A DNA stretch of 64,000 nucleotides from Leptospira sp. (GCA_034439575.1 JAWXAQ010000002.1:1-64000), one strand, 5' to 3'. Counted from the first letter of the stretch, positions 18,845 to 46,300 are shown. Numbers and translations are program-made. The notes: a model not told the origin generated them from the letters alone.

Positions 18845-18908
18845 GATCGATAAAACCTTGTTTGGTGTTAAACTGTTATCATGCCACCAAACAAGATTTA
18901 GGTAAAAA

Positions 18909-19283
18909 TTATTCCTTTAATCCAATACCTGCCCAAGGAGTCCAAGCTTTGTCTCCATCATCAAAATTAATAAACAAAGCTCCTCCTATAATTTTCGCAA
19001 CGGTTCCTGGATAAAATTTACCATCGGTAAATCTAGCCATCACCTTACTCCCAACAGCAATGTTCAATTTTCTCATACGAGGAAAAGGCACTACTTCTTG
19101 GTCTCCATCATCAAAAATCACAAGAAATCCACCACCTTTTACGGTGTTATCTGATTCGACCGCCGTTCCCACAAAGTAACCTTTAGTCGCTTCGTGGTAA
19201 GCTATGACTCGGTCTCCTACACCAATTGCAAAAATTTGCGTTTGTATGGCAAACAGACCAAAAACTATTAAAATTGTTTTCAT
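18909..19283 (-). CDS. Secreted tandem Tudor/Agenet-like domain protein
   Basis: Signal peptide; two repeats of VG.xV.A...Y/F..GT....F.V/I.FDDGD; AAGGAG RBS. Confidence 0.75.
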   Translation of the reverse strand: MKTILIVFGLFAIQTQIFAIGVGDRVIAYHEATKGYFVGTAVESDNTVKGGGFLVIFDDGDQEVVPFPRMRKLNIAVGSKVMARFTDGKFYPGTVAKIIGGALFINFDDGDKAWTPWAGIGLKE

Positions 19284-19338
19284 GATTTTACTCCTTAATT
19301 AAGAAAAATTTCAATTTTCGCATGGCTAAAAATTATCC

Positions 19339-20880
19339 TTATTTTACGGGTGGGGGGCCACCAGACTGAACTGTTTTAATATATTCAGGTGCCTTCGTTT
19401 CTGTCTTTGTTAAACTACGAGATGCCACGGAAGTTTGATTTTTTGTTTGGACTTGAAAATTGATCGTATCTGCACCACTTCCATTCCAAAAAAACCACAC
19501 GCTATCTAGCTCCCAGACACCATCTTCAGCTAACACTGCTGCATCTTGTTTCGGGTTTCCTGCTGTAAATGCCACATATGAAGGATTGATCACACCAAAT
19601 AATTGATCAGACTGTGGGTCGTGCGGAAACCATTGATTTTTAGAAGCATCATAGATTTCTAATATGGAATGAGGTAATGCAGGCGATGGATCTGTCCAAG
19701 GTCCGATGCCGTAAACTCCTCGGACTGGAATTTTTAAGGCACGTAACATACCTATGGCGATATAAGTAAAATATCCACAGTCGCCAGTCCCTTGGTCTAA
19801 CCATGATTTAACGGAGTTTCCTTCTACGCGAGTTCCGTATTTATAATTGGCCCTTAGATAGTTTAAAGCCAAGTCTGCCTTCTCGCCGAGACTCCTTCCT
19901 GATCTTGTGATCTGATTCACTTGACTAATAAACTCTGGGTCGTCTAATGAAAAGAGACCTTCTCTATTTTCTGATGCCCAATCAAAATTTGGATCACCTA
20001 ACTTTGATGCCTTCAGTTTAGCAGGTCGATTTGTCAAACTCTTTGCATTTTGTTCTATGACTAAACTTAACTGAATTTGTTCTGGCCAATCTTCGTTGTT
20101 TGGTTTTTCCAATTGTAAAAAACGATTTCCTCGTTTGGAAATTTCTGAGGTATTTAAATTTGAATTTGGCTCAGTCAATTTATAAGAAATCAATTTTTGA
20201 TAGGGACGGTCTAAAGGCAGAGTTATACGAATTGTATTTCCGTCTTGGATTCTCCATGATGATAAAAGTTTTGTTAGTCGGATGTTCCAATCAATTCGAA
20301 TTTCTTTAGGTGCCAATTGTTGTTGGACCCATGATCCTTCTGGCGCATATTGAATCGCTTTATTCGTATCGCCTTTTGTATAATATAGCCAAGCTAGATT
20401 TTCTTGAAACCAAGGAGAAGGGTTCTTGTTGCCACCGCGAATTGTATTTTGAAATTTTAAATTGTAAGTGATCGCATCATCTAATTTGCGTAAATTTTCT
20501 AAACAGATAATCGTTTCTTTAAAGGGCATTTCGTCCAAATCATTATTTAACTCGGACGCTTTTTGTAAATATGATAATGCTTCTTTGGGATTTTGCAAAT
20601 AATTCTTTAACGTATAACCAATCATAAATGGTCTAGACCATTGTTCGGGCTCCAATTCATTTGCCATCTTAAATTTGGTAAGGGCTTCATTTGGTTGATT
20701 TTTATTATATAATAAATCAATTCCTTGATTATAAGCTTCTATTCCTGAACTTTGAGAATAAATATTTTCAGAATAAAAAGGTGATGATAAAAGAACCAAA
20801 AACACAAATTTTATAAGGAAATTTCTCTTAATAAAAAATTGAATTTTACGCTTAGATAGAAATGGATTTGGTAAGATCAT
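19339..20880 (-). CDS. Exported TPR + transglutaminase-like protein
   Basis: N-terminal TPR-like helices; GDCGYF, PHSILE, WFPHDP (Cys-His-Asp triad). Confidence 0.85.
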   Translation of the reverse strand: MILPNPFLSKRKIQFFIKRNFLIKFVFLVLLSSPFYSENIYSQSSGIEAYNQGIDLLYNKNQPNEALTKFKMANELEPEQWSRPFMIGYTLKNYLQNPKEALSYLQKASELNNDLDEMPFKETIICLENLRKLDDAITYNLKFQNTIRGGNKNPSPWFQENLAWLYYTKGDTNKAIQYAPEGSWVQQQLAPKEIRIDWNIRLTKLLSSWRIQDGNTIRITLPLDRPYQKLISYKLTEPNSNLNTSEISKRGNRFLQLEKPNNEDWPEQIQLSLVIEQNAKSLTNRPAKLKASKLGDPNFDWASENREGLFSLDDPEFISQVNQITRSGRSLGEKADLALNYLRANYKYGTRVEGNSVKSWLDQGTGDCGYFTYIAIGMLRALKIPVRGVYGIGPWTDPSPALPHSILEIYDASKNQWFPHDPQSDQLFGVINPSYVAFTAGNPKQDAAVLAEDGVWELDSVWFFWNGSGADTINFQVQTKNQTSVASRSLTKTETKAPEYIKTVQSGGPPPVK

Positions 20881-21061
20881 ATTTTTAATCCTTTAGTTGC
20901 GGTTACAAAAAATTATAGAAATTTAATTTTCGAATGTCTGAAAGTTATTAGGATCAGATTTTCAAGTTCAATTTTTTAATCTATTTTTCACAGACATCAA
21001 TCAAAAAATCGGGTAAACTTTTTCTAAAATTTTTTTTTTAAACATACTTTTAGGATTACTT

Positions 21062-21090
21062 TTGACAGAGTAACCTTTGCATTTTAATTA
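21062..21090 (+). promoter_or_regulatory. Candidate sigma70 promoter for the marR gene (near-leaderless)
   Basis: TTGACA-N17-TAATTA ending 7 nt before the ATG at 21098. Confidence 0.4.
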
Positions 21091-21097
21091 GAGTATC

Positions 21098-21526
21098 ATG
21101 GAAACAGATTGGAAGAATATGGATTCAGTCGTATTATTAATCCGCGGTGGACGCATTGCAGCGGAATTATTAGAAAATGAAATTCTTTCACTCGGGATAT
21201 CAGTTCCACAGTTGAGTATCATTTTGAGCTTATATACTCTCGGAGAAATGACTGCAAGTGATTTGTGCCAAGTGACTATGAGAGATAAAGCGAATATAAG
21301 CGCTCTTACAAAGAAATTAGAGTTAGGTGGCTTTATTCAATTAATAAAAAATAAAGAAGATTCGCGTAGTTCTTCTATTTCACTTACAGCAAAAGGTAAA
21401 AAAACAGCTCAATTAGGTCAAAAAGCACAGGCTTCTGTATCTAAGAAATTAGAAGGATTATCTACAAAGTCTGAATTTCCAAAAAATTATCTCCTCCAAC
21501 TCATTCAGAAAGTTCCATTCCGTTAA
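21098..21526 (+). CDS. MarR-family transcriptional regulator
   Basis: wHTH pattern, DKANIS..LE..G, EDSRS, LTAKG. Confidence 0.88.
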   Translation: METDWKNMDSVVLLIRGGRIAAELLENEILSLGISVPQLSIILSLYTLGEMTASDLCQVTMRDKANISALTKKLELGGFIQLIKNKEDSRSSSISLTAKGKKTAQLGQKAQASVSKKLEGLSTKSEFPKNYLLQLIQKVPFR

Positions 21527-21568
21527 TTTTTTTTATTGATATTTTATCCTAGATTCTTTAGATGAAAA

Positions 21569-21590
21569 TAGTTAGTATGCAAACTAACTA
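21569..21590. promoter_or_regulatory. Palindromic operator, probably bound by the adjacent MarR
   Basis: TAGTTAGT-atgcaa-ACTAACTA, a perfect 8-bp inverted repeat abutting the AAGGAG RBS of 21606. Confidence 0.65.
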
Positions 21591-21605
21591 AAGGAGAATA
21601 CTCGA

Positions 21606-22031
21606 ATGTCACAAATACTTCTATTTTTGACCCTGCTTATATTTGGAGCTGTAACCGTAAACGCTGAGACAAATGTGAATCGGGAACTGGAAGAAAAAAT
21701 TATTCAGTTCGTAAAGGCAGGAGATGAACAAAATCCAAATCTATTGGATGGAGTTTTGCATCCAGACTACCGTATCACATATGCTTTTCCTTGGGATACT
21801 AAGGTTAGCATTGTAAATCATGATCTGTATCGTCAAATGTTGTCGGACAAAAAATTAGGTGGTAAAAAACGTACAGTGAAGATCGAGGATATTTCGGTGA
21901 GAGGAAATATTGCCGTTGTACGAACGCGGATGCAAAGTGATGTTATGAAATTTTCTACTTTTTTTTCTCTTATTAACATAGGTGAAGGATGGAGAATCAT
22001 TGCCGACTTGCCATACGCAGAAAAAATCTAA
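21606..22031 (+). CDS. Exported NTF2/SnoaL-like (lumazine-binding-like) protein
   Basis: Signal peptide; LHPDY, I.V.GNIA.V, GWRII. Confidence 0.75.
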   Translation: MSQILLFLTLLIFGAVTVNAETNVNRELEEKIIQFVKAGDEQNPNLLDGVLHPDYRITYAFPWDTKVSIVNHDLYRQMLSDKKLGGKKRTVKIEDISVRGNIAVVRTRMQSDVMKFSTFFSLINIGEGWRIIADLPYAEKI

Positions 22032-22083
22032 ATCTTTTTGAATTGGAAGTGCAAAGGAATTGGTTTTTTGAAAACTGATTCCT

Positions 22084-22791
22084 ATGTCCAAATCTTCTAA
22101 ACCAAATACTCGATTTTTACCGAAAGGTTTGGAAATTATTTATGATGATAGGGACATACTTGTAGTTAATAAACCTGCTGGCCTTTTAACGATCGCTACA
22201 GACAAAGAAAAAACCAAAACCGCCTATGCTTCGTTAATGGATTTCGTCAAAAAGGGAGATGATCGTTCAAAAAATCGAATATTTATAGTTCATAGATTGG
22301 ATAGAGATACTTCAGGAATTCTTATCTTTGCAAAAACAGAGGCGGCAAAATTAAAATTACAATCGAACTGGGAAAATACAGACAAACGTTATATGGCTGT
22401 CACACACGGAAATTGGAAAATTAAACAAGGAACTATAAAATCTTATTTAATCGAAAATAAAGCACAGGTTGTTTATTCAACGCATGATTCTGAATCGGGG
22501 AAACTCTCTATCACAAAATATCAAATTTTGAAAGAGACGGATAAATATTCCTTAGTCAGTGTAGATTTACAAACAGGAACTAAAAATCAAATTCGGGTGC
22601 ATATGGCTGATGAAAAACATCCTATCGTCGGTGATACCAAATATGGCAATGATCAGAAAAAATACCAAAGAATGGCATTGCATGCTTTGGCGATCAAATT
22701 CCAACATCCGTTTAATGGAAAGCAGATGGAATTTCAAACTGATATACCATCGTTTATAAGTGGTTTAGTGGGCGGATATGAATTGGTTTGA
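22084..22791 (+). CDS. RluA-family pseudouridine synthase
   Basis: VNKPAGL, VHRLDRDTSG, TGTKNQIRVH, PIVGDTKYG. Confidence 0.92.
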   Translation: MSKSSKPNTRFLPKGLEIIYDDRDILVVNKPAGLLTIATDKEKTKTAYASLMDFVKKGDDRSKNRIFIVHRLDRDTSGILIFAKTEAAKLKLQSNWENTDKRYMAVTHGNWKIKQGTIKSYLIENKAQVVYSTHDSESGKLSITKYQILKETDKYSLVSVDLQTGTKNQIRVHMADEKHPIVGDTKYGNDQKKYQRMALHALAIKFQHPFNGKQMEFQTDIPSFISGLVGGYELV

Positions 22792-22887
22792 GGGGTTCTT
22801 TAATTTGATGATTTCGAATTTTTATCTTCAAAAAAGAATCCTTTTTACCTTTTGTAATTTAATAATTTTATTAAAATATGATTATCA

Positions 22888-23727
22888 TTAGTTAGTGCAG
22901 ACACTTGGAGAACCAACACATGTGTAGCTGCCCTCGACTGTGCATACATTGCTACAACCATCACCGCTATTTGTATTTCCGTCGTCGCATGGCTGATAAG
23001 ATGGTTTAACTCCATCACCACAAATATCACAAGCGACAGCTACGTTTGTGATATTGGAAGAAACTATTGTACCAGAACCATTGGCAGTGACTCCACAACT
23101 TGATGTCGTTGGTTGGGTAAACACGGTGACTGCATATGTATTATTTGTTGAGACTGTGGTTCCAAAAACAAAGGCTCCTGTTGCCGATCTAGAGAGATTG
23201 TTTGCACCATTTAACCTAAGTACGACTGTTCCAGAGTTTAAATTTCCCGTTATAGATCCACCTACAGTATGATTTGTGATGGGTGTTGTTGCAGCAGTTG
23301 TCGTAGTTGAACTTGTACCACCTGTAATCTCTAAAGTTAGAGTAAATATGGTTGTTGATCCATCTGGCCTTGTTTGTGTGATCGAATATGTTGTCGAAGC
23401 TAAGGAGGCAGTAGAGGATCCACTTAAAACGCCCGTACCGGTATCGAGTGTGATTCCAGAAGGAAGGGAAGGGGATACACTATATGTTGATCCAGATACA
23501 TGATTTGAAGGAGCTAGGTTTATGCTTTGGCCTGCTGTATAAGAAAAAGTCGTTGAAGAGGGGTAAGTGGAATTTGTTGAGGATTGCGCTGTGCCAGAGA
23601 CGAGTGCTAAACCCGCAGCCCCGATCATAGATTCATTTGATTCTTTTTCTGGTTTGATAAGATCGCAAGACAAATGTAAGCAAAAAGTTAAGAGTAAAGA
23701 AATCAATTTTAGTTTTATATTTTTCAT
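22888..23727 (-). CDS. Lipoprotein with Ig-like modules and a C-terminal myxococcal-type Cys-rich repeat
   Basis: LHLSC lipobox; SLPSGITLDTGTG.LSG (He_PIG-like); CGDG...CDDGNTNSGDGCS..C.VE..YTC. Confidence 0.8.
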   Translation of the reverse strand: MKNIKLKLISLLLTFCLHLSCDLIKPEKESNESMIGAAGLALVSGTAQSSTNSTYPSSTTFSYTAGQSINLAPSNHVSGSTYSVSPSLPSGITLDTGTGVLSGSSTASLASTTYSITQTRPDGSTTIFTLTLEITGGTSSTTTTAATTPITNHTVGGSITGNLNSGTVVLRLNGANNLSRSATGAFVFGTTVSTNNTYAVTVFTQPTTSSCGVTANGSGTIVSSNITNVAVACDICGDGVKPSYQPCDDGNTNSGDGCSNVCTVEGSYTCVGSPSVCTN

Positions 23728-23860
23728 CCGAATATTTCCTTTCGCATTTTAGTGATTAGGTTAGATTAAATAAACGGCTGTTATTTAGTCAATGGATTTC
23801 TATATATTATCAGATTGGAATTCGTATTCCCAAATGGTTAAATTTGATGCTTTTATCAAA

Positions 23861-23888
23861 TTGACACCTTTTCTCTACGATTTAATCT
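23861..23888 (+). promoter_or_regulatory. Candidate sigma70 promoter for the DUF1566 gene
   Basis: TTGACA-N16-TAATCT, 9 nt before the ATG at 23898. Confidence 0.4.
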
Positions 23889-23897
23889 GATTGTAGG

Positions 23898-25364
23898 ATG
23901 AAATATTTTCAAAACGCACAATTTATTAGATTCATTTTAATTTTTTGTGTAATGGGATTCATGTTACAAAATTGTAATCAATTGAATTTGGACAATCCAT
24001 GTGAATTGAATTCTAAACAATATTCAAATTTTCAGGTATTGAAACTTGCTACTGGGTCCGATCTTTCCAATTGTGCTCGTGTGATTGGCAATACGCAATC
24101 CACAGATTTATCTTCAAAAGTCATTACTACCTTTTCTTTTACATCCGCATTAAATGAAATTTCTAGAACCTATGAAGGAACCATTGTAGGAGATAATATC
24201 ACAATTTCCATTCCCTATGGCATTCGTAGTTCAGCCATCCCTACTTTCGCACATTCAGGAAAATCAATCCAAATCGGTGATACGATCTTAGAAAGTGGCA
24301 TCACGATTTCTAATTTTTCTTCTAACACAACTTTAAAAGTAACAGCGCAAGACGGCACAACGAAAGACTATAATTTAACAGTTATGCCTATTGTTTTAAT
24401 TCCCGACACGGCCCAAACGAGTTGTTGGGACCAAGCAGGTGCTTTACTTGGAAGTTGTTCGGGGACAGGGCATGATGGTGCTTATGAAAACATTCCTCAT
24501 ACAAGAAACTTTTCGGACCCCACTACAAAAACCGCTTATCCTTCGGATGCCATCACATACGACAAGTTAAATGGTCTGACATGGAAAACTTGCGCGGAAG
24601 GATTTTCTGGGGTTACTTGTACCACGGGGGGAACGACCCAATCCTTTGCGGCTTCGGCTACTTTATGCTCTAATTTAAATTCAACAAACTCGGGTTCTGG
24701 GTATGCGGGAAAAAAAAATTGGCGAGTGCCTACCATCATAGAATTGGCAAACCTTGCTAACTTCCAAAATGTTTCCCCAACCCTTGCCCTAGATTCAAAT
24801 AGTTTTCCAGGAACCCTTGCCGCCAATACATTTTGGTCCAGTACGCCAAATGCAAGCAATACAGCAAATTCTTGGGTTGTCAATTTTTCTTCAAATAACA
24901 TAAGTGATTTGGCCATTGCAACACTTGCCAATGTTAGGTGTGTAGCAGGTGATTTACCACCCTCTGGCAATTTTACAGACAATGGGGATTCGACTGTGAC
25001 TGACAACAATACAAAATTGGTCTGGGCAAAATGCTCTGATGGGCTTACTGGTACGACATGTACTGGAGGTGGACTCAATTCACAGATTCTTTCAACTAAC
25101 CTCACAATTTGTAATACGTACACACTAGCGGGAAAAACGTGGCGATTGCCCAATGCGAATGAACTAAGGAGCCTTATGGATTACTCACTTACGACACCGA
25201 CCTTAATTAATTCTTCATTTCCAAATACCAACGCTACTCAATATTGGACTTCATCGACTAATCCAAATACTACTACTACCGGTTTTCTTCATTATTTTAA
25301 TACTGGAAGTTTTGCTGCATTAGGGAAAGGAAGCCCACGTCCCTTTCGTTGTGTTGCGAATTAA
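23898..25364 (+). CDS. Lipoprotein with an Ig-like domain and two DUF1566 (Lcl C-terminal) domains
   Basis: MLQNC lipobox; VTAQDGTTKDY; two copies of L.W..C..G...WR.P...EL...FP....W.S...RCV. Confidence 0.85.
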   Translation: MKYFQNAQFIRFILIFCVMGFMLQNCNQLNLDNPCELNSKQYSNFQVLKLATGSDLSNCARVIGNTQSTDLSSKVITTFSFTSALNEISRTYEGTIVGDNITISIPYGIRSSAIPTFAHSGKSIQIGDTILESGITISNFSSNTTLKVTAQDGTTKDYNLTVMPIVLIPDTAQTSCWDQAGALLGSCSGTGHDGAYENIPHTRNFSDPTTKTAYPSDAITYDKLNGLTWKTCAEGFSGVTCTTGGTTQSFAASATLCSNLNSTNSGSGYAGKKNWRVPTIIELANLANFQNVSPTLALDSNSFPGTLAANTFWSSTPNASNTANSWVVNFSSNNISDLAIATLANVRCVAGDLPPSGNFTDNGDSTVTDNNTKLVWAKCSDGLTGTTCTGGGLNSQILSTNLTICNTYTLAGKTWRLPNANELRSLMDYSLTTPTLINSSFPNTNATQYWTSSTNPNTTTTGFLHYFNTGSFAALGKGSPRPFRCVAN

Positions 25365-25369
25365 AAAAG

Positions 25370-25405
25370 GAAATTCATATTAGAAAACTATATATTATGA
25401 ATTTC
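25370..25405. terminator. AT-rich inverted repeat after the DUF1566 gene, possible terminator
   Basis: GAAATTCATA...TATGAATTTC. Confidence 0.4.
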
Positions 25406-25481
25406 GAATCATTGAAATCAAATTGAGAATTTTAATTATTGAAATGTAACTTAATAATAATCGATTTGCGGTAATCAACTG

Positions 25482-26217
25482 TTATGCGAAATGACTTTAT
25501 TTTTTAATTGAGAATGAAATAAATGGAAATGAGTATCGGAAAAAAATATGATAAAATAGCTCAATGGTGGCATCAACATCACTTTCTTTCCAATTACGGA
25601 ATTCCTCAAATTGAAAGAGCAATTAATTTTACTAATATTCGAAATTCAGCATTGGATATAGGTTGCGGAAGCGGCGGAAGAATTATTAGGAAGTTACTTT
25701 TGGAAGGATTTAATATCACTGCCATAGATGCTTCCATTGAAATGATTAATATTGGTAAAAGTATTCATAATAATGTTGAATTTATTCACGCAGATATATT
25801 GGATTGGAAATCAGAGAAGAAATTTGACCTCATAATTGCTTGGGATAGCATCTTTCATATTCCTATGCATAAGCATGAAAGTTTATTATATAAACTCTCT
25901 AATTTACTTACGCAGAATGGCATTCTTATTTATTCTTTTGGAAATGATTTTGGAGAGCATGTAAGCGATTGGCATGGAGAAAAATTCCCATACGCTTCAA
26001 TTGGAATTAATCAAAATATAAGTAAAATCATGGAATCAGGTTGTCAAATTTTGCATTTAGAATTAGATCAATATCCAGAAAAACATGTTTATATGATTGC
26101 AAAAAAATGTAACATGAAAATTGCGTAACTTCATATAACTTCGGCCTGCCGCATCGCTCAGTGACTTACGCCACTTACGGAGGCTAATCTATTGGCAACT
26201 TCGACTTGCCTAGTTAG
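25482..26217 (+). mobile_element. Solitary integron-like gene cassette
   Basis: Begins G|TTATGCGAAAT (GTTRRRY-like) and contains one ORF. Ends in a GC-richer imperfect inverted repeat starting at ATATAAC (26133) and ending at G|TT (26217). Confidence 0.6.
25523..26128 (+). CDS. Class I SAM-dependent methyltransferase
   Basis: ALDIGCGSG, IDAS, HADI, FDLIIAWDSIFH. Confidence 0.92.
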   Translation: MEMSIGKKYDKIAQWWHQHHFLSNYGIPQIERAINFTNIRNSALDIGCGSGGRIIRKLLLEGFNITAIDASIEMINIGKSIHNNVEFIHADILDWKSEKKFDLIIAWDSIFHIPMHKHESLLYKLSNLLTQNGILIYSFGNDFGEHVSDWHGEKFPYASIGINQNISKIMESGCQILHLELDQYPEKHVYMIAKKCNMKIA

Positions 26218-26223
26218 TTACTC
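26133..26223 (+). repeat. Degenerate attC-like site
   Basis: TTCATATAAC matches the reverse complement of the cassette's first bases (TTCGCATAAC) at 8/10; inner arms GGCCTGCCG and CGACTTGCC pair at 6/9. Confidence 0.55.
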
Positions 26224-26547
26224 GGCATCACCAACAACTAAGTGATTGTACTTTTCAGGTGAGTCTTCTAGTAAATAATGGGCAATCAGTAAATCGATGT
26301 CTTCTTCTGTGCGGAGGCGAAACCATTTGCCTTCAGGGTAGGATACTTGGATAGGACCAAGTTCACATCTATCCAAACATCCTGCTCTTTGAATTCGGAA
26401 TTTATAATTGATACCAGCTTTCACCGATTTTTGTTTGAGAAGTTTTAGGATTTCTCCTGAGCCTTGCCTTCCACAAGATACTCGTTCGCCGGGAGCTCTT
26501 TCGTTTTCACAAACAAAGATATGTTTCTCATAAAACTGATTAGGCAT
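26218..26547 (-). CDS. Thioredoxin-like [2Fe-2S] ferredoxin
   Basis: HIFVCENER...SC...[16 protein letters not shown]. Likely start is ATG 26547, overlapping the gcvP stop. Confidence 0.9.
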
Positions 26548-29452
26548 AACTTTCCATAGGAATACAAGAACAAATAAGATTTCTATCTCCATAGACATTA
26601 TCCACTCTTCCTACACTTGGCCAAAATTTTCTAGTTCGTATCCATGGGAGTGGGTATGCGGCTCTTTCTCTCGTATAACTGTGATTCCATGAATCAGATA
26701 TGACCATTTCCGCTGTATGTGGGGCATTTTTTAAAGGATTGTCTGTTTTATCCAATACACCATTTTCGATATCTTTGATTTCATTGGCAATGGACAACAT
26801 AGCATCGATAAAACGGTCGAGCTCTTCTTTGGATTCTGATTCGGTAGGTTCTACCATAAGAGTACCTGGTACGGGAAAAGACATGGTCGGTGAATGGAAA
26901 CCATAATCCATTAGTCGTTTGGCGATATCTTCTACTTCAACTAAAGAAACTTTTTTAAAACCTCGAATGTCCAAAATACATTCATGAGCAACTAGCCCTT
27001 TGTTTCCTTTGTACAATACAGGGAAAGCATCTGATAAACGTTTGGCGATATAATTGGCATTTAAGATCGCAAGTTTTGTCGCATGTTTTAATCCTTCAAA
27101 TCCAAGCATAGCGATGTATGCCCAAGAGATGACGATGATGGATGCGGAACCCCAAGGAGCCGATGTGACAGCACCTTGTCCATTGTTTGATCCATTTTCA
27201 ATCATACTATGACCTGGTAAAAATGGCGCTAGGTGTTCTGCGACACCAATTGGCCCAACACCTGGACCACCACCACCATGAGGGATACAGAAAGTTTTAT
27301 GTAAATTTAAATGACAAACATCAGCACCAATATCTGCAGGTCTTGTGAGTCCGACTTGTGCATTCATATTGGCACCATCCATATAAACTTGGCCACCGTT
27401 CTCATGAATGATATTGCAAATTTCTTGGATGGATTCTTCAAAGACACCGTGTGTTGATGGATAGGTGACCATGAGAGCACCCAAATCATCTTTATGTTCG
27501 ATGGCTTTTTTCTTTAAATCACTTACATCTATATTTCCATTTTCATCACAGGCAACGACCACAACTTGGAATCCAGCCATCACAGCTGATGCGGGATTTG
27601 TTCCATGGGCCGAGACTGGGATCAAACAAATATTTCTATGATTATCGTTCCTACTTTGATGGTAATTTCGAATGGCAAGTAAGCCAGCATATTCACCTTG
27701 CGAACCTGCGTTAGGTTGGAGGGAAACTTCCGCAAAACCAGTAATTTCACATAACCATTTTTCTAATTGTCCAAATAGTTTTCTGTAACCTTCTGTTTGA
27801 TTTTCTGGAACAAATGGATGGATGCTCGCAAGTTCTGGCCAAGTGACAGGATACATCTCGGTGGATGCATTTAACTTCATCGTACAAGATCCGAGTGCAA
27901 TCATCGAAGTGGTTAACGATAGATCTTTGGCTTCGAGTCTGCGAATGTAGCGTAACATTTCAGTTTCTGTATGGAAACTATTGAAAACTGGATGAGTTAA
28001 ATACTCGGATTTTCTTTCTAATAATTCTGGTATGGCCCACTCTTTTTTTTTGGAAAGTTCTTCCAGAGAAAAATGTATAACTTTGTTTTCATTAAATACC
28101 TCTAACAAATCTTGAATGTCGGCAAGAGTCGTTGTTTCATCCAAAGAAATGCTGATTACATGTTGAGATACAGAACGTAAATTGATTTCTTTTTCTTCCG
28201 CATAATGGATGATTTCCGAAGAAGTAACTTTTGTTAATTCGACACGCAATGTATCAAAATAAGGTTTGGAAATGACTTTAAATCCCAGTTTTTCAAGGCC
28301 TGTGGCAAGTAGGGTTGTCATTCTATGAACTCTGGCAGCAATTTGTTTCAAACCTTGTGGCCCATGATAAATCGCGTACATTGAAGACAGAACTGCAAGT
28401 AATACTTGCGCAGTACAGATATTAGATGTCGCTTTGTCTCTACGAATATGTTGTTCACGAGTTTGTAATGATAGCCGATATCCGGGTTTTCCTTGAGAAT
28501 CTTTGGACACACCGATAAGGCGACCAGGCATATTACGTTTGTATTCTTCTTTTGTCGCGAAAAACCCAGCATGTGGACCACCAAAGCCGAGTGGCAATCC
28601 AAATCTTTGTGTGCTTCCCACTACAACATCCGCATCCATTTCACCCGGTGGTTTTAATATCGTTAATGCAAGTATGTCGGCGGCTACAACGGCTTTGGCA
28701 CCTACAGCGTGTAAACTTTTGATAAATTCGCTAAAATCAAAAACCGTTCCATCGCTAGATGGGTATTGGACAATGGCTCCGAAAAAATCATTTGATGGAA
28801 CCATCTTTTTGAAAGATCCTACCACGATATTGATCCCAAGAGGTATGGCGCGAGTGCGAATCACATCTAAGGTTTGTGGATGAACGGATTGCGAAACAAA
28901 AAAAGATTTTCCTTGGGCTTCCTCTTTCAAAGCGTATAACATAGACATGGCTTCCGCCGCCGCAGTTCCTTCATCTAACAAAGAAGCATTCGCGATTTCC
29001 ATTCCAGTCAAATCAGTGATCATCGTTTGGAAATTGATAAGGGCTTCCATACGACCTTGTGCAATTTCTGCTTGGTAAGGAGTGTAAGCCGTGTACCAAC
29101 CTGGATTTTCTAAGATATTTCTTTGGATCACTGGTGGCGTGATACATGCGTTATATCCTAGTCCTAGATAAGACCGATAGACTTTGTTTTTAGAAACGAT
29201 TTTTTTTAATTCTTTTTGTAATGCGAATTCACCGAGCGGAGAAGGAAGTTCCAAAGTTTTTTTCAGACGAATATTTTTTGGAACTGCATCATCGATTAGC
29301 CCATCCAATTCCTTATAACCAATCGTTTGTAACATTTCAGCAATGCGTGTGGCATCAGAACCGACGTGTCTTCTTAAAAACGTATCACTGGGATGTAATG
29401 TTTCATCGAAAGTATGATCTGTGGAAGAAAGAGAATGGGAAGATGTTTTCAC
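26540..29452 (-). CDS. gcvP: Glycine dehydrogenase (decarboxylating), P protein
   Basis: [22 protein letters not shown]-lysine motif, DNVYGDRNL; 970 aa. Confidence 0.98.
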
Positions 29453-41495: not shown

Positions 41496-41915
41496 TTAAA
41501 CTGCTCTTACAACCAAATCGCCACCAGCTTTCACTTCGCCAGCTTCGTTTTTTGCCTCAACAAGTACAGTGACGGTTTTTTTACCATCTTTTTCAAACTT
41601 CTTTTTTATTGTACCGAAACAAGTTAGCTTTTCACCTAACTTTGTCATGGCTTTGAAAGTAACACCAAAATATTCTATGTCTTTCTGGTCCGCCCAAGAA
41701 GTACATAACCTTCCTACTTGTGCCATCACATACATACCATGAGAAATAGTTCCTTCGAGGCCTGCTTTTCGTGCAAAGTCAGGATCATTGTGAATAGGGT
41801 TAAAATCCCCAGATGCACCCGCATAACGAACTAAATTTGCATGTTCAATGACAGGAATATCAAGTGATGTTAGTGTTTCGCCAACTTCTACTTTATCAAA
41901 TTGAATTTTAGCCAT
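41496..41915 (-). CDS. MaoC-like (R)-hydroxyacyl dehydratase, catalytic subunit (HadB-like)
   Basis: YAGASGDFNPIH, ISHGM hydratase-2 motif. Confidence 0.9.
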   Translation of the reverse strand: MAKIQFDKVEVGETLTSLDIPVIEHANLVRYAGASGDFNPIHNDPDFARKAGLEGTISHGMYVMAQVGRLCTSWADQKDIEYFGVTFKAMTKLGEKLTCFGTIKKKFEKDGKKTVTVLVEAKNEAGEVKAGGDLVVRAV

Positions 41916-43399: not shown

Positions 43400-46300
43400 A
43401 TGTCATTTTCTAGATTCAAATTCCTTTTCCCAATTGGCTTGTTCCTTTTCGTGATTACTTCATGTATTCCCACAGTAGAAAGGAGTTTGGTTGAACTTGC
43501 GAGTTTTATAAGAACTCAGACAAATCAAACTTCGGGAAAAATTTTTGTTACAGTCAATGCTCTCCAAGGTTCAGGACTAGTTTTAAATTTAAATGAATCA
43601 GAGGATCTTAGCGTCAGTTCTAGCGGGGAAGTTTCATTTACTACGACCTTATCGCCTCGGTCAAATTATACAGTTACCATCAAAACTCAACCCACTAGCC
43701 CCTTTCAAGTCTGCTCAGTGAGTGGCGGAACGGGAACTCTCATCTCTGGTGATATCAAATCTGTTCTCGTTAATTGTGACGAAGCCACATATTCGTTAGG
43801 TGGAACCATTTCTAGCCTTGCTGGTTCAGGCCTAGTTATATCCAATAATGGAACAGACTCAGTTTCAATTTCCGCAAACGGGAGTTTTGCTTTCACAACA
43901 ACCTATAAAGTCGGAACTACCTATTCTCTATCTGTATCCTCATCGCCCACTCACCCAACACAAACTTGTACTATTTCAAACGGTAGTGGAACTTTTTCTG
44001 CGGCTAATATAAGTTCAGTGAGTATTTCTTGTACAACAACGGCACGTGCAGTGCGGGCGACAGTGACTGGTATAGGTTCTGGAACTTTAGTTCTTAACAA
44101 TAACACATCGGATTCATTAAGTATATCTTCCAATGGAAGTTTTGTTTTTAATAATGATGTTACAATTGGTGCGAGTTATGCGGTCACAATCACATCGGCA
44201 CCTACTTCCCACACTTGTGCTTTGTCTGGTGCTACCGGAACCATCGCTGGGACAGATGCTACAGTGACTGTGAATTGTTTTAGTATAGTCGCACAAACGC
44301 CTGAATCGCTTTCTGTCTTACGGACAAATCAAAGTATTTCACTTCGATTTTCGGCTTCAGTCACAGCATCTTCTTGCACATTGGGAGCAGGCAATTTAAC
44401 AACTGGTGGCACTATTTCATATTCGGTAAGTACGACTTCAATTACAGACGATACTTTGACGATTTCGACAACTACAACTTGGAATCCAGCCTCTGTTTCT
44501 CAACAAATCACATGTACGAGTGCTGCAGGCAATTCACTTGCCAATGGAACACATACTTTTCGTTATACGATTCCCTCATCAGTTAGTTATGTGAGTTCGG
44601 CATCAGGTGCCGATGGAAATTCTGGCACATCTCCTGCTGCACCAGTCCGAACCATTCAGAGAGGGATCAATGTTTTGGGTGCTTGTGGCACCCCTCCCTG
44701 TGTCGTTTATGTAGAAGACGGAACTTATGAAGCAGAAGACTTTGGCCAAAATTTTATCACTTTGTCAGTTGGTGTATCGCTTTATGGTGGCTATACGGCT
44801 GGAAGTTCTTTTGCAACAAGAAATGCGAGTGCTAGGCTCACACTCATCCAAAACAGTGCACCTACAGTTTGTGGAGCTTCCGCAATTCCGCTAACTCCTT
44901 GTAAGACGATACTTGTTCCAGGAACTGTGACAAATAATACTTTTATTGACGGTTTTAGAATTACTGGGGCGAGTACAAGTTCAGATTCGACTGCGATTTC
45001 CATTGTAGGTGGCAAACCAATTATTTCAAACAATACGATCTCTGGTGGGAGCTCAAATAATGCGGCAGGAATTATAATTAATAATTTTGGTGGCTCAAGT
45101 GCAGGTGATGGCTCGCAAGGAGCCATTGTCAATAATACCATTTCTGGAGGTAGTTGTACAGTGGCTAATTGTATCACAGCGGGAATTGTATCATATAGTA
45201 CAACAGCAGGATTATTTCCTTATGTGCAAATCAATACAATCACTGGTGGATCATGTGCTACGGCGACATGCAAAACCTATGGATTTTATTTAGGAACTGG
45301 AAATTCAGTAGATCTAAATAATTTTCGTTATAATACGATTAGCGGAGGTACAGTTTCTCCTGCTTCGACTGGAACGGAAAGCACTGGTATTTATATAAAC
45401 GATGGTTCAACGACCGGTAAGCTGTATGGAAATACAATTAACGGTGGTACGGCGGCAAATACTTCTGGCATTTATCTTGGAGTTTCTATGCCACTTGTTA
45501 TTGGGGATAGTGCGACAAAAACTGGAAATGCCATTTTTGGAGGTACTTCTAATTCAACGAGCTATGGTGTTCGTTTAGGTTCAGGTGGAAGTTTATATTC
45601 CAATTCAATCCATGCAGGAAATGTTATAGCTCCGACTGCCTCAGCAATTACCTATGGAGTTCAATCATCATCTGGTGTTGTCACATTAAATGGGAATCGA
45701 ATTTATGGAGGATCGTCAGTCGCGAATGGATCTGTATTTTCTGCCTCATATGGAGTCGCTTTGGTTAATTTGGGAGCCGCCACCATCATAGTGGGAAATC
45801 ATATATCGGCAGGGATTAGCCGAAATAATGGAACGAATAATGCGTATGCATACGGCTTACATTTAGCGCAAGTTTTTAATACACCATTAAGCGTATATAA
45901 TAATATGATTGATGGGGGAACTAGCAGTCTTGCCGTTTCTACTAATACTTCCGAATCACATGGTATATTTATATCAAATTCTACAATTGTATCGAGCATT
46001 TACTATAACACTATTTTTTCAGGTTCGGCAGAAGATATCTCTACTCCCATCACTTATTCTAATACAAATTCTCGATTTGCTGATATAAAAAATAATATTC
46101 TCTATACACAAGTAGGCGCGACAAATCGGATTTGTCTAAATCATTTTGGTACTACAGAAGCTACAAATTTGTCAGCACTTAGCGGAAATGTTTTTTATGG
46201 ATGTACAACACTTGTTAAATTTCCTACAATTTCTGCTGACCAAATTTGTGTCGGAGGAGTTGTGAGCAGTAGTGGTTGTCCCACTACAAATATTTCTACA

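Follow-up and report, generated by a model that had tools for sequence, protein, structure and literature searches.

Integrons are defined by the integrase IntI together with attC sites, and in the integrons of Treponema the integrase is typically co-oriented with the cassettes. Host or Xer-like tyrosine recombinases also move discrete gene modules, as in the Xer-dependent pdif/dif modules of Acinetobacter plasmids and the integrative mobile elements exploiting Xer (IMEX). The sedentary chromosomal integrons (Vibrio superintegron type, Treponema; PMC3607928) have long co-oriented arrays of mostly single-gene cassettes, a homogeneous structured repeat with inverted AAC/GTT cores after each cassette, cassettes of the toxin-antitoxin and restriction/modification type that are reordered between species, and a tyrosine recombinase at the array head, co-oriented with the cassettes. 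Single cassettes also occur far from any array: cassette insertion outside att sites was reported (preprint 10.1101/2022.09.11.507474), and the creation of clusters of attC sites lacking integron-integrases (CALINs) at secondary sites is mentioned in PMC4889954. Here a methyltransferase gene is described in a 64,000-nt stretch of Leptospira sp. DNA (the window; all positions count from its first letter), which is probably a solitary, decaying cassette of an integron-like system general in Leptospiraceae.

All the features listed for sedentary chromosomal integrons recur in this system. It differs from them in its repeat, which is about 177 nt long with a branched interior and is unmatched by the attC models of IntI-linked spirochaete arrays, and in its recombinase, which has extra residues on the N-side, scores below the integron-integrase cut-off and lies apart from the array in two genomes (G010 and G023). 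The window locus itself resembles the solo cassettes and CALINs at secondary GTT sites, being a single cassette far from an array, with a G|TT junction in non-site DNA and a decaying site. Here, however, site and recombinase fall outside the IntI/attC family as defined, and the insertion event is one that we infer.

The first-pass annotation of the window, made from the sequence alone, had read the gene as an orphan integron-like cassette with a decaying attC-like site, and had related its repeat to a dispersed Leptospira family that would imply a wider cassette-shuffling system. This core reading was supported, and none of the observations that it had named as grounds for rejection was made. 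Its coordinates and motifs all proved correct when re-read directly on the sequence: 25481 is a G followed by TTATGCGAAAT, TTCATATAAC lies at 26130-26139, and 26217 is a G followed by the TTA (26218-26220) that is the stop codon of a convergent 2Fe-2S-ferredoxin-like open reading frame (ORF; 26218-26598, minus strand). The word orphan holds for the locus and fails genome-wide, since eight further copies of the repeat and, on another contig, a related recombinase were found. The features around the methyltransferase gene are:

25468-25480, unstranded: stretch reminiscent of an inner (L) box at a repeat end, adjoining the junction on its left; part of a match to the hidden Markov model (HMM) of the repeat family
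25481-25492, plus: R'-type core box G|TTATGCGAAAT, equal to an array R' 12-mer; left cassette boundary at 25481|25482
25482-26217, plus: 736-nt cassette, from the TT of the upstream core to the G of the downstream core (integron convention)
25523-26128, plus: ORF of a class I S-adenosylmethionine (SAM)-dependent methyltransferase, 201 aa (Pfam)
26128-26171, plus: 5' part of the decayed repeat copy (R'' box CATATAAC and L'' region; family HMM positions 3-45)
26160-26226, plus: 3' part of the decayed repeat copy (family HMM positions 108-173)
26218-26598, minus: thioredoxin-like 2Fe-2S ferredoxin gene, last of the gcvP operon (NCBIfam, below cut-off)

The cassette boundaries were drawn from the family consensus and from the homology breakpoints of cassettes common to G010 and G023. 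The TTA of the right junction is provided by the stop codon (TAA) of the ferredoxin gene. The spacer 26129-26217 (89 nt) is GC-richer (0.49) than the genome as a whole (0.357) and than the methyltransferase gene (0.304). A groundwater-metagenome contig of 921 nt spans 25600-26520 with eight differences and bridges the junction, which is therefore real DNA and no misassembly.

The repeat family and its copy in the window

When the 65 nt around 25481 were compared with the genus, many matches of about 40 nt were obtained, often at contig ends, and through these the repeat family was found. They represent one end of a structured repeat of about 177 nt. Its consensus starts with ...CTTCGCATAAC and ends with CTAGTTCGTTATGCGAAAT, which are the two boxes singled out in the first-pass annotation; the two boxes of the window are thus the conserved ends of the family. 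The ends form inverted core boxes, ...CGCATAAC on the 5' side and GTTATGCG... on the 3' side. Helix 1 of the family consensus joins CGCATAAC to GTTATGCG, five of the seven pairs of helix 2 covary, and unpaired columns lie between the two helices. The complete fold is branched and has 54 pairs, 18 of them with compensatory changes on both sides. Paired cells amounted to 96.9% against 86.2 ± 0.8 in shuffles (0/500 as high) and 24-43% in slid controls, figures that are somewhat flattered because the 12 copies scored had also served to derive the structure. The consensus therefore does fold into an attC-like hairpin and has the site architecture of integrons (inverted AAC/GTT cores, paired inner boxes, unpaired bases, a folded strand). 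To this extent the attC-like site proposed earlier stood, whereas the attC models of IntI-linked arrays do not match it.

The family was defined by an alignment (A5), a covariance model (R3) and the family HMM. R3, with at most 23 candidates scored per genome, detected the repeat in 100 of 114 Leptospiraceae genomes, which have homologues beside other single genes; by genus, it was present in 40/40 genomes of the window's own genus and in 22/22, 24/24 and 5/5 genomes of three others. This bears out the dispersed Leptospira repeat family that the first-pass annotation had suggested. The organism's own genome (37 contigs, 99.98% complete) has the eight further copies mentioned above, including two-copy mini-arrays on contigs C15 and C21. 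As two copies lie at the start of C21, this metagenome-assembled genome (MAG) may lack unassembled array sequence.

A family HMM built from 19 copies, none of them from the window, was searched over the 64 kb on both strands. The three best matches all lay on the flanks of the methyltransferase gene: 26160-26226 (profile 108-173, E 0.0044), which is significant window-wide, 26128-26171 (profile 3-45, E 0.98) and, on the minus strand, 25490-25468 (profile 5-27, E 1.1). The first two are collinear, which implies that the spacer is one copy minus about 62 central positions (46-107). The eight copies of the own genome align to both halves of the spacer and reveal the same loss of about 62 positions, in agreement with the decaying site proposed for the 3' end. 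The outer helix is partly broken in the window copy, which begins at the methyltransferase stop codon (26126-26128). Its family homology stops at GTTA (26217-26220), overlapping the ferredoxin stop, and the expected continuation TGCGAAAT sits at 25485 instead, directly after the other GTTA. This arrangement is the geometry of a cassette recombined at the core box, with 25482-26217 as the natural unit. The two G|TT positions that had been proposed as boundaries thus find support in the core box at 25481 and in the family homology that ends at GTTA.

The 25481 box fits the family in other respects. The exact 12-mer GTTATGCGAAAT occurs nine times in the 4.1-Mb genome (both strands) and is the second commonest R' 12-mer of the G010 and G023 arrays (21/200). 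The repeat stands after a co-oriented ORF, and some 30 nt separate the core box from the next start codon (42 nt from 25481 to the ATG, as in aligned array cassettes). Left of the box, the 25468-25490 match agrees in 19 of 23 columns overall and in 10 of the 13 columns left of 25481 (hand count on the printed alignment), and the stretch 25468-25480 gives 78-82% matches to repeat ends in relatives. The family HMM had no match inside 22792-25467 at E<=10; one at 41820-41837 was taken as chance, as it lies inside an ORF. A match of 44 nt and 86% identity, starting at TGTTATG, runs through the 5' leader (window 25480-25523 against L008 1501-1544, i.e. G006:C9:40294-40337). In G006 it is found 85 nt upstream of a 257-aa ORF, AraC-like by eye, outside any array, and is possibly another escaped cassette edge.

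Searches with the window copy as a single sequence gave less. BLAST with the 106 nt around the spacer returned no significant second copy in the own genome, 40 relatives, plasmids or phages, and the comparison of the spacer with relatives, proposed earlier as a way to find copies, gave nothing significant in the 40 relatives with the spacer alone. In the own genome the best other nhmmer match of the spacer had an E of 0.73; two of the three sub-threshold matches fall inside the family copies, which together cover about 1.4 kb of that genome, in the right orientation and register. Rfam had no match on the spacer or the array repeats, and no tRNA was called at the locus by ARAGORN. GTTATGCGAA occurs at 78 places in the genome, which lie by eye in mostly coding-looking or unrelated contexts without conserved flanks; their excess was not used as evidence.

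Arrays and recombinases in relatives

In relatives the repeat occupies every spacer of arrays of co-oriented single genes, 70-200 kb in length:

G010: 123 full copies on one strand; 104.6 kb; median spacing 897 nt (324-2599); 120 of 125 ORFs co-oriented
G023: 80 copies; 71.7 kb; 70 of 80 ORFs co-oriented
G127: at least 81 copies; about 94 kb (C2:299364-393160)
G398: at least 84 copies; about 84 kb (C2:220186-304483)
G410: at least 114 copies; two blocks of about 201 and 27 kb

Besides those of G010 and G023, arrays were found in three other genera. The GC content is 0.55 within repeats and 0.29 between them, and ORFs of cassettes at array edges include HigB/helix-turn-helix, Mrr-like, DndB-like, Dam-type and HATPase genes. 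About ten cassettes are 86-97% identical in G010 and G023 at unrelated positions, some being duplicated within G010. The presence of the same cassettes in a different order in the two arrays supports the wider shuffling system that had been suggested. In 8/8 common cassettes the sequence right of CTAGTTCG|TTA is conserved and cassette-specific. Identity is 0.45-0.90 in the upstream repeat and 0.43-0.74 past the downstream G, and in 3/8 pairs conservation of the downstream repeat equals that of the cassette body (0.96 or more). The last G010 repeat (L322 2291-2400) ends in CTAGTTAGTTA, the same 11-mer as at the right junction of the window, and is followed by core DNA; internal G010 copies carry CTAGTTCGTTA at this place.

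In three genomes (G127, G398 and G410), 4/4 arrays are headed on their 5' side by a tyrosine recombinase gene of the same orientation; neither the G010 nor the G023 array is. One ORF separates this gene from the first repeat. Relatives thus have co-oriented arrays with one site per cassette and a recombinase at the head; the window locus is a single cassette. The array-head proteins are 345-373 aa long and share 37-43% identity with each other and 39-46% with a 366-aa protein of G010. For all six recombinases the best curated model was NF040815 (XerA-type; 'site-specific tyrosine recombinase/integron integrase'), with 192-231 bits. The array-type proteins (192-214) are below its cut-off of 220 and only a protein on contig C11 of the own genome (231) is above it; the name of this model defines no cassette system. 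With the integron-integrase model (NCBIfam TIGR02249, cut-off 265 bits) the array-adjacent proteins scored 170-183 bits, the 366-aa G010 protein 188 and the C11 protein 162, so that the search for an IntI-like recombinase suggested earlier yielded none at that cut-off and Xer/IntI-like recombinases at all four array heads. XerC and XerD scores followed closely behind the best models. The array recombinases have about 70-100 extra residues ahead of the part matched by the Xer and IntI models, and their alignment to the integron-integrase model skips positions of about 180-235, which we take to be the IntI-specific insertion. As judged from these comparisons, the array recombinase is intermediate between Xer and IntI. 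The core boxes CGCATAA and TTATGCGAAAT presumably resemble the two arms of a dif site. Whereas dif-type sites are, as we take it, duplexes of about 28 bp, the arm-like boxes of the repeat are about 160 nt apart and are joined only by folding.

Two further groups of recombinase genes were noticed. At C11:40691-44830 of the own genome the gene of the 305-aa XerA/IntI-like recombinase has behind it, on the same strand, two ORFs that are PIN-like by eye, a 143-aa ORF, a CTAGTTnGTTA remnant at 44176 and a miniature repeat of about 60 nt at 44765; the whole may represent a small cassette locus tied to this recombinase. In G398 three 310-aa tyrosine recombinase ORFs (C2:238981, 250928 and 276500, plus; Pfam 133.3, 133.3 and 135.6 bits) lie inside the minus-strand array, opposite to the orientation of the repeats.

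Membership of the canonical integrons was assessed by the two components that define them. For the integrase, taken as a TIGR02249 score of 265 bits or more, no protein of the own genome reached the cut-off (best 162 bits, C11), and 0/75 family genomes had a hit at E<=1e-40, compared to 41/401 genomes of the phylum above the cut-off. For attC, models were made from IntI-linked spirochaete arrays (R1, 14 sites of one genome; R2, 28 sites of four genomes). R2 found 62, 49, 12 and 20 sites in its control genomes and 0 sites in the own genome; R1 and R2 missed 26123-26223 even with filters off and had no match on the Leptospira repeats. This null result is a valid test of canonical attC membership and not of the idea in the first-pass annotation. 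IntegronFinder 2.0 (Table S1) lists 0 complete integrons, 0 CALINs and 0 In0 elements in 32/32 Leptospira genomes. The system is integron-like in its working, yet neither defining component was recognised in it, and it is no canonical integron.

Proposed origin of the cassette at the ferredoxin gene

The loss of about 62 nt from the 3' copy and the homology that ends at GTTA on the ferredoxin stop indicate that the methyltransferase gene is, with good probability, a solitary, decaying cassette of the system described above. The cassette would have been excised as a circle, and the recombinase, acting in trans, would have inserted it where the ferredoxin gene ends, at a G|TTA site. The target was possibly itself a remnant of an older repeat copy: the roughly 13 nt left of 25481 resemble a repeat end, so that it may have been an older site or small array and not naive DNA. 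The repeat would subsequently have decayed, which probably leaves the cassette immobile today. We infer delivery in trans in preference to the erosion of a small array. The surroundings were compared with relatives; the features to the left are:

22084-22791, plus: RluA-family pseudouridine synthase gene (NCBIfam TIGR00005, 183.9 bits)
22792-26217, unstranded: lineage-specific 3.4-kb segment, not in two syntenic relatives (tblastx synteny, Pfam)
22888-23727, minus: DUF4215/He_PIG lipoprotein gene within this segment (Pfam)
23898-25364, plus: Lcl_C lipoprotein gene within this segment (Pfam)

Gene order is kept in only 2 of 29 relatives' loci examined (G020 and G052); in the other 27 what lies downstream of the ferredoxin gene is different. 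In G020 and G052 the rluA homologue ends 15 nt and 3 nt from the ferredoxin stop, respectively, which means that the window differs from them by a 3.4-kb segment of three genes and not by 736 bp. By this gene order, the ferredoxin gene ancestrally had rluA as its convergent neighbour. The left edge of the segment (22780-22895) and its right edge have no direct or inverted repeat in common. Compared to G020 a second lineage-specific segment is present at 18845-22083, with four ORFs (124, 513, 142 and 141 aa), part of which (21305-22028) is found in G052. The ferredoxin gene was found in 41/41 genomes of the genus, its C-terminus is as long as in G020, and its relatives carry the name (2Fe-2S) ferredoxin domain-containing protein [Leptospira]. 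From what these relatives are called, the organism appears to belong on the saprophytic side of Leptospira.

Several observations weigh against a cassette delivered in this way. The alignment with sister species that had been recommended gave no empty site; the relatives are too distant and differ by the 3.4 kb. Neither relatives nor metagenome contigs (four runs) contained an empty site, and no recombination event was seen. Metagenome stretches without cover (e.g. X13 over 25601-26324) are no evidence either way, and a protein-pattern metagenome scan with the ferredoxin returned only distant relatives of <=53% identity. A G also precedes the ferredoxin stop in G020, so that the GTTA microhomology could equally have served illegitimate recombination. 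At the level of the site, the reverse complement of TTCATATAAC matches GTTATGCGAA at 8/10 positions; the count given earlier was correct, but 137 matches of at least 8/10 to that box occur in the window versus 123 ± 11 after shuffling, which is the chance level. The bottom strand of the joined site folds with -12.9 kcal/mol (z -1.43, 21/300 shuffles as good); folded in situ it has z -2.56. Box complementarity and joined-site fold being at chance, the observation rises above it because of the external evidence from the repeat family. The window copy is also weak by R3 (9.8 bits over 26126-26230, E 0.17) and in the genome-wide match to the family HMM (E 0.28), which is due to the deletion of about 62 positions. 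As to the system, nothing in the own genome is closely orthologous to the array-type recombinase, the nearest protein being the 305-aa one on C11 (34% identity), and a distance of about 1.7 Mb or more separates recombinase and array in G010 and G023. In 5/8 common cassettes the downstream repeat is less conserved (0.78-0.88) than if it were always cassette-borne. The homology break lies in 8/8 within the 11-mer CTAGTTCGTTA, which is compatible with G|TT and resolved no finer.

Part of this evidence would also suit an eroded mini-array beside the ferredoxin gene, in which deletions took most of an upstream repeat and 62 nt of the downstream one. Such an origin is unlikely but deserves consideration: a likeness to a repeat end persists in the 13 nt left of 25481, the own genome does have two-copy mini-arrays, and the last G010 repeat ends in the same CTAGTTAGTTA before core DNA. 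It would require the right deletion to end exactly at GTTA with the stop codon spared, and the two lipoprotein genes on the left are without repeat traces. It is considerably less probable that the repeats are selfish or regulatory elements (like miniature inverted-repeat transposable or repetitive extragenic palindromic elements, terminators or RNA stabilisers) and that the methyltransferase gene arrived by ordinary horizontal transfer. The separation of recombinase and array in G010 and G023, the fold of the minus-strand spacer RNA (z -2.40) and the fact that recombination was never observed agree with this. They are outweighed by the uniform orientation of 123/123 G010 copies, one per gene spacer, by the break of common-cassette homology at the core box, and by the recombinase genes at all four array heads of three genomes; moreover, no terminator-like site is present in 22700-26700, and Rfam gave no match.

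Chance, i.e. an ordinary unique spacer between convergent genes with coincidental boxes, would account for the silence of BLAST and single-sequence nhmmer, for the complementarity at chance level and for the unremarkable fold of the joined site. It makes a very improbable explanation of three best family-HMM matches that all flank one gene, of weak nhmmer matches of which two in three belong to own-genome family copies in the right orientation and register, and of a 12-mer with only nine genomic occurrences. The least credible possibility is a canonical cassette, with an attC recombined by a bona fide IntI. The AAC...GTT core boxes, the paired inner boxes with unpaired bases and the cassette-array architecture would suit it, in contrast to the integron-integrase scores of at best 162-188 bits for a cut-off of 265, to the empty integrase and attC searches and to the absence of IntegronFinder elements. 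The reading as a solitary, decaying cassette of an integron-like system is preferred.

The methyltransferase family and the wider system

The methyltransferase scored 52.2 bits with Pfam Methyltransf_25 (cut-off 27), and four sister families, including Methyltransf_23, also matched; no NCBIfam equivalog matched at its cut-off. It has a Rossmann-type SAM-binding domain, with DxGCGxGG and later motifs invariant among 21 homologues. A total of 410 homologues was found at E<=1e-10, the closest with 63% identity, and the family is patchy across several phyla. No orthologue was found in the 40 genomes of the genus, the closest protein being 43% identical (G056). The G018 array holds a distantly related class I methyltransferase (34% identity) as a cassette. 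The flanks of 80 homologues in other taxa had no common neighbours, no similarity and no family repeat. In a gammaproteobacterial MAG (L137 2103-2202; 204-285 minus) a homologue starts 14 nt from a match to the Treponema-type attC model (E 2e-4) that ends in GTTAGGC, and a weaker match lies near a Marinomonas homologue (L113 1071-1181); these suggest that the family may also be carried in classical integrons. The Nitrosomonas and Shewanella homologues (L125 and L133) are nearly identical (branch lengths 0.011 and 0.005, support 99), which points to recent transfer between classes.

No description of such Leptospira arrays was found in the open literature searched, subscription journals lying outside it, and a prior description is possible. 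Leptospira is unmentioned in the main text of both IntegronFinder papers; in the portion consulted of the 2016 supplement two L. biflexa rows read NA, and an 'Inverted_integrase' column is present. The word integron is absent from the passages found of the L. biflexa genome paper and the 2016 genus comparison, and no cassette arrays appear in them. The 2013 Treponema paper gives Treponema as the only spirochaete clade with integrons. A broader proposal, which we hold tentatively and at slightly less than even chances, is that Leptospiraceae carry a so far undescribed branch of integrons, with platforms of 80 to >120 cassettes (70-200 kb) and a branched site of about 177 nt; that the 345-373-aa Xer/IntI intermediate without the IntI-specific domain can act on it in trans; and that cassettes escape to chromosomal GTTA sites, as the methyltransferase gene of the window would have done, in a system that current integron finders miss. 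If this is true, the whole family, including its pathogen-containing groups, holds a large unrecognised reservoir of mobile accessory genes, and a natural intermediate between Xer-type and integron-type systems would make the origin of integrons directly testable. The window would then illustrate how cassettes reach ordinary chromosomal sites and decay there. Surveys built on IntI and attC models report nothing in Leptospira.

Two minor observations concern the genomic setting. In G010 and G023 a family-B DNA polymerase gene (L321 8542-11178; L323 3410-6019 minus), preceded by a conserved ORF of 201/223 aa, lies upstream of the array, which begins about 1 kb from it. An initial impression that the arrays start at the polymerase stop codon was dropped, as in both genomes the polymerase gene has a small conserved gene behind it. 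ORF and polymerase are also paired in the own genome, at C5:26708-28963 (43% and 47-48% identity), with no repeats there. The own genome also contains, on C8, C11, C30 and C35, a second small repeated element with about five occurrences (reading of the listing), which starts with GTTATGCGAAAGATTG..., is GC-rich inside, ends near CCATATAACAC and has its core boxes in the opposite order.

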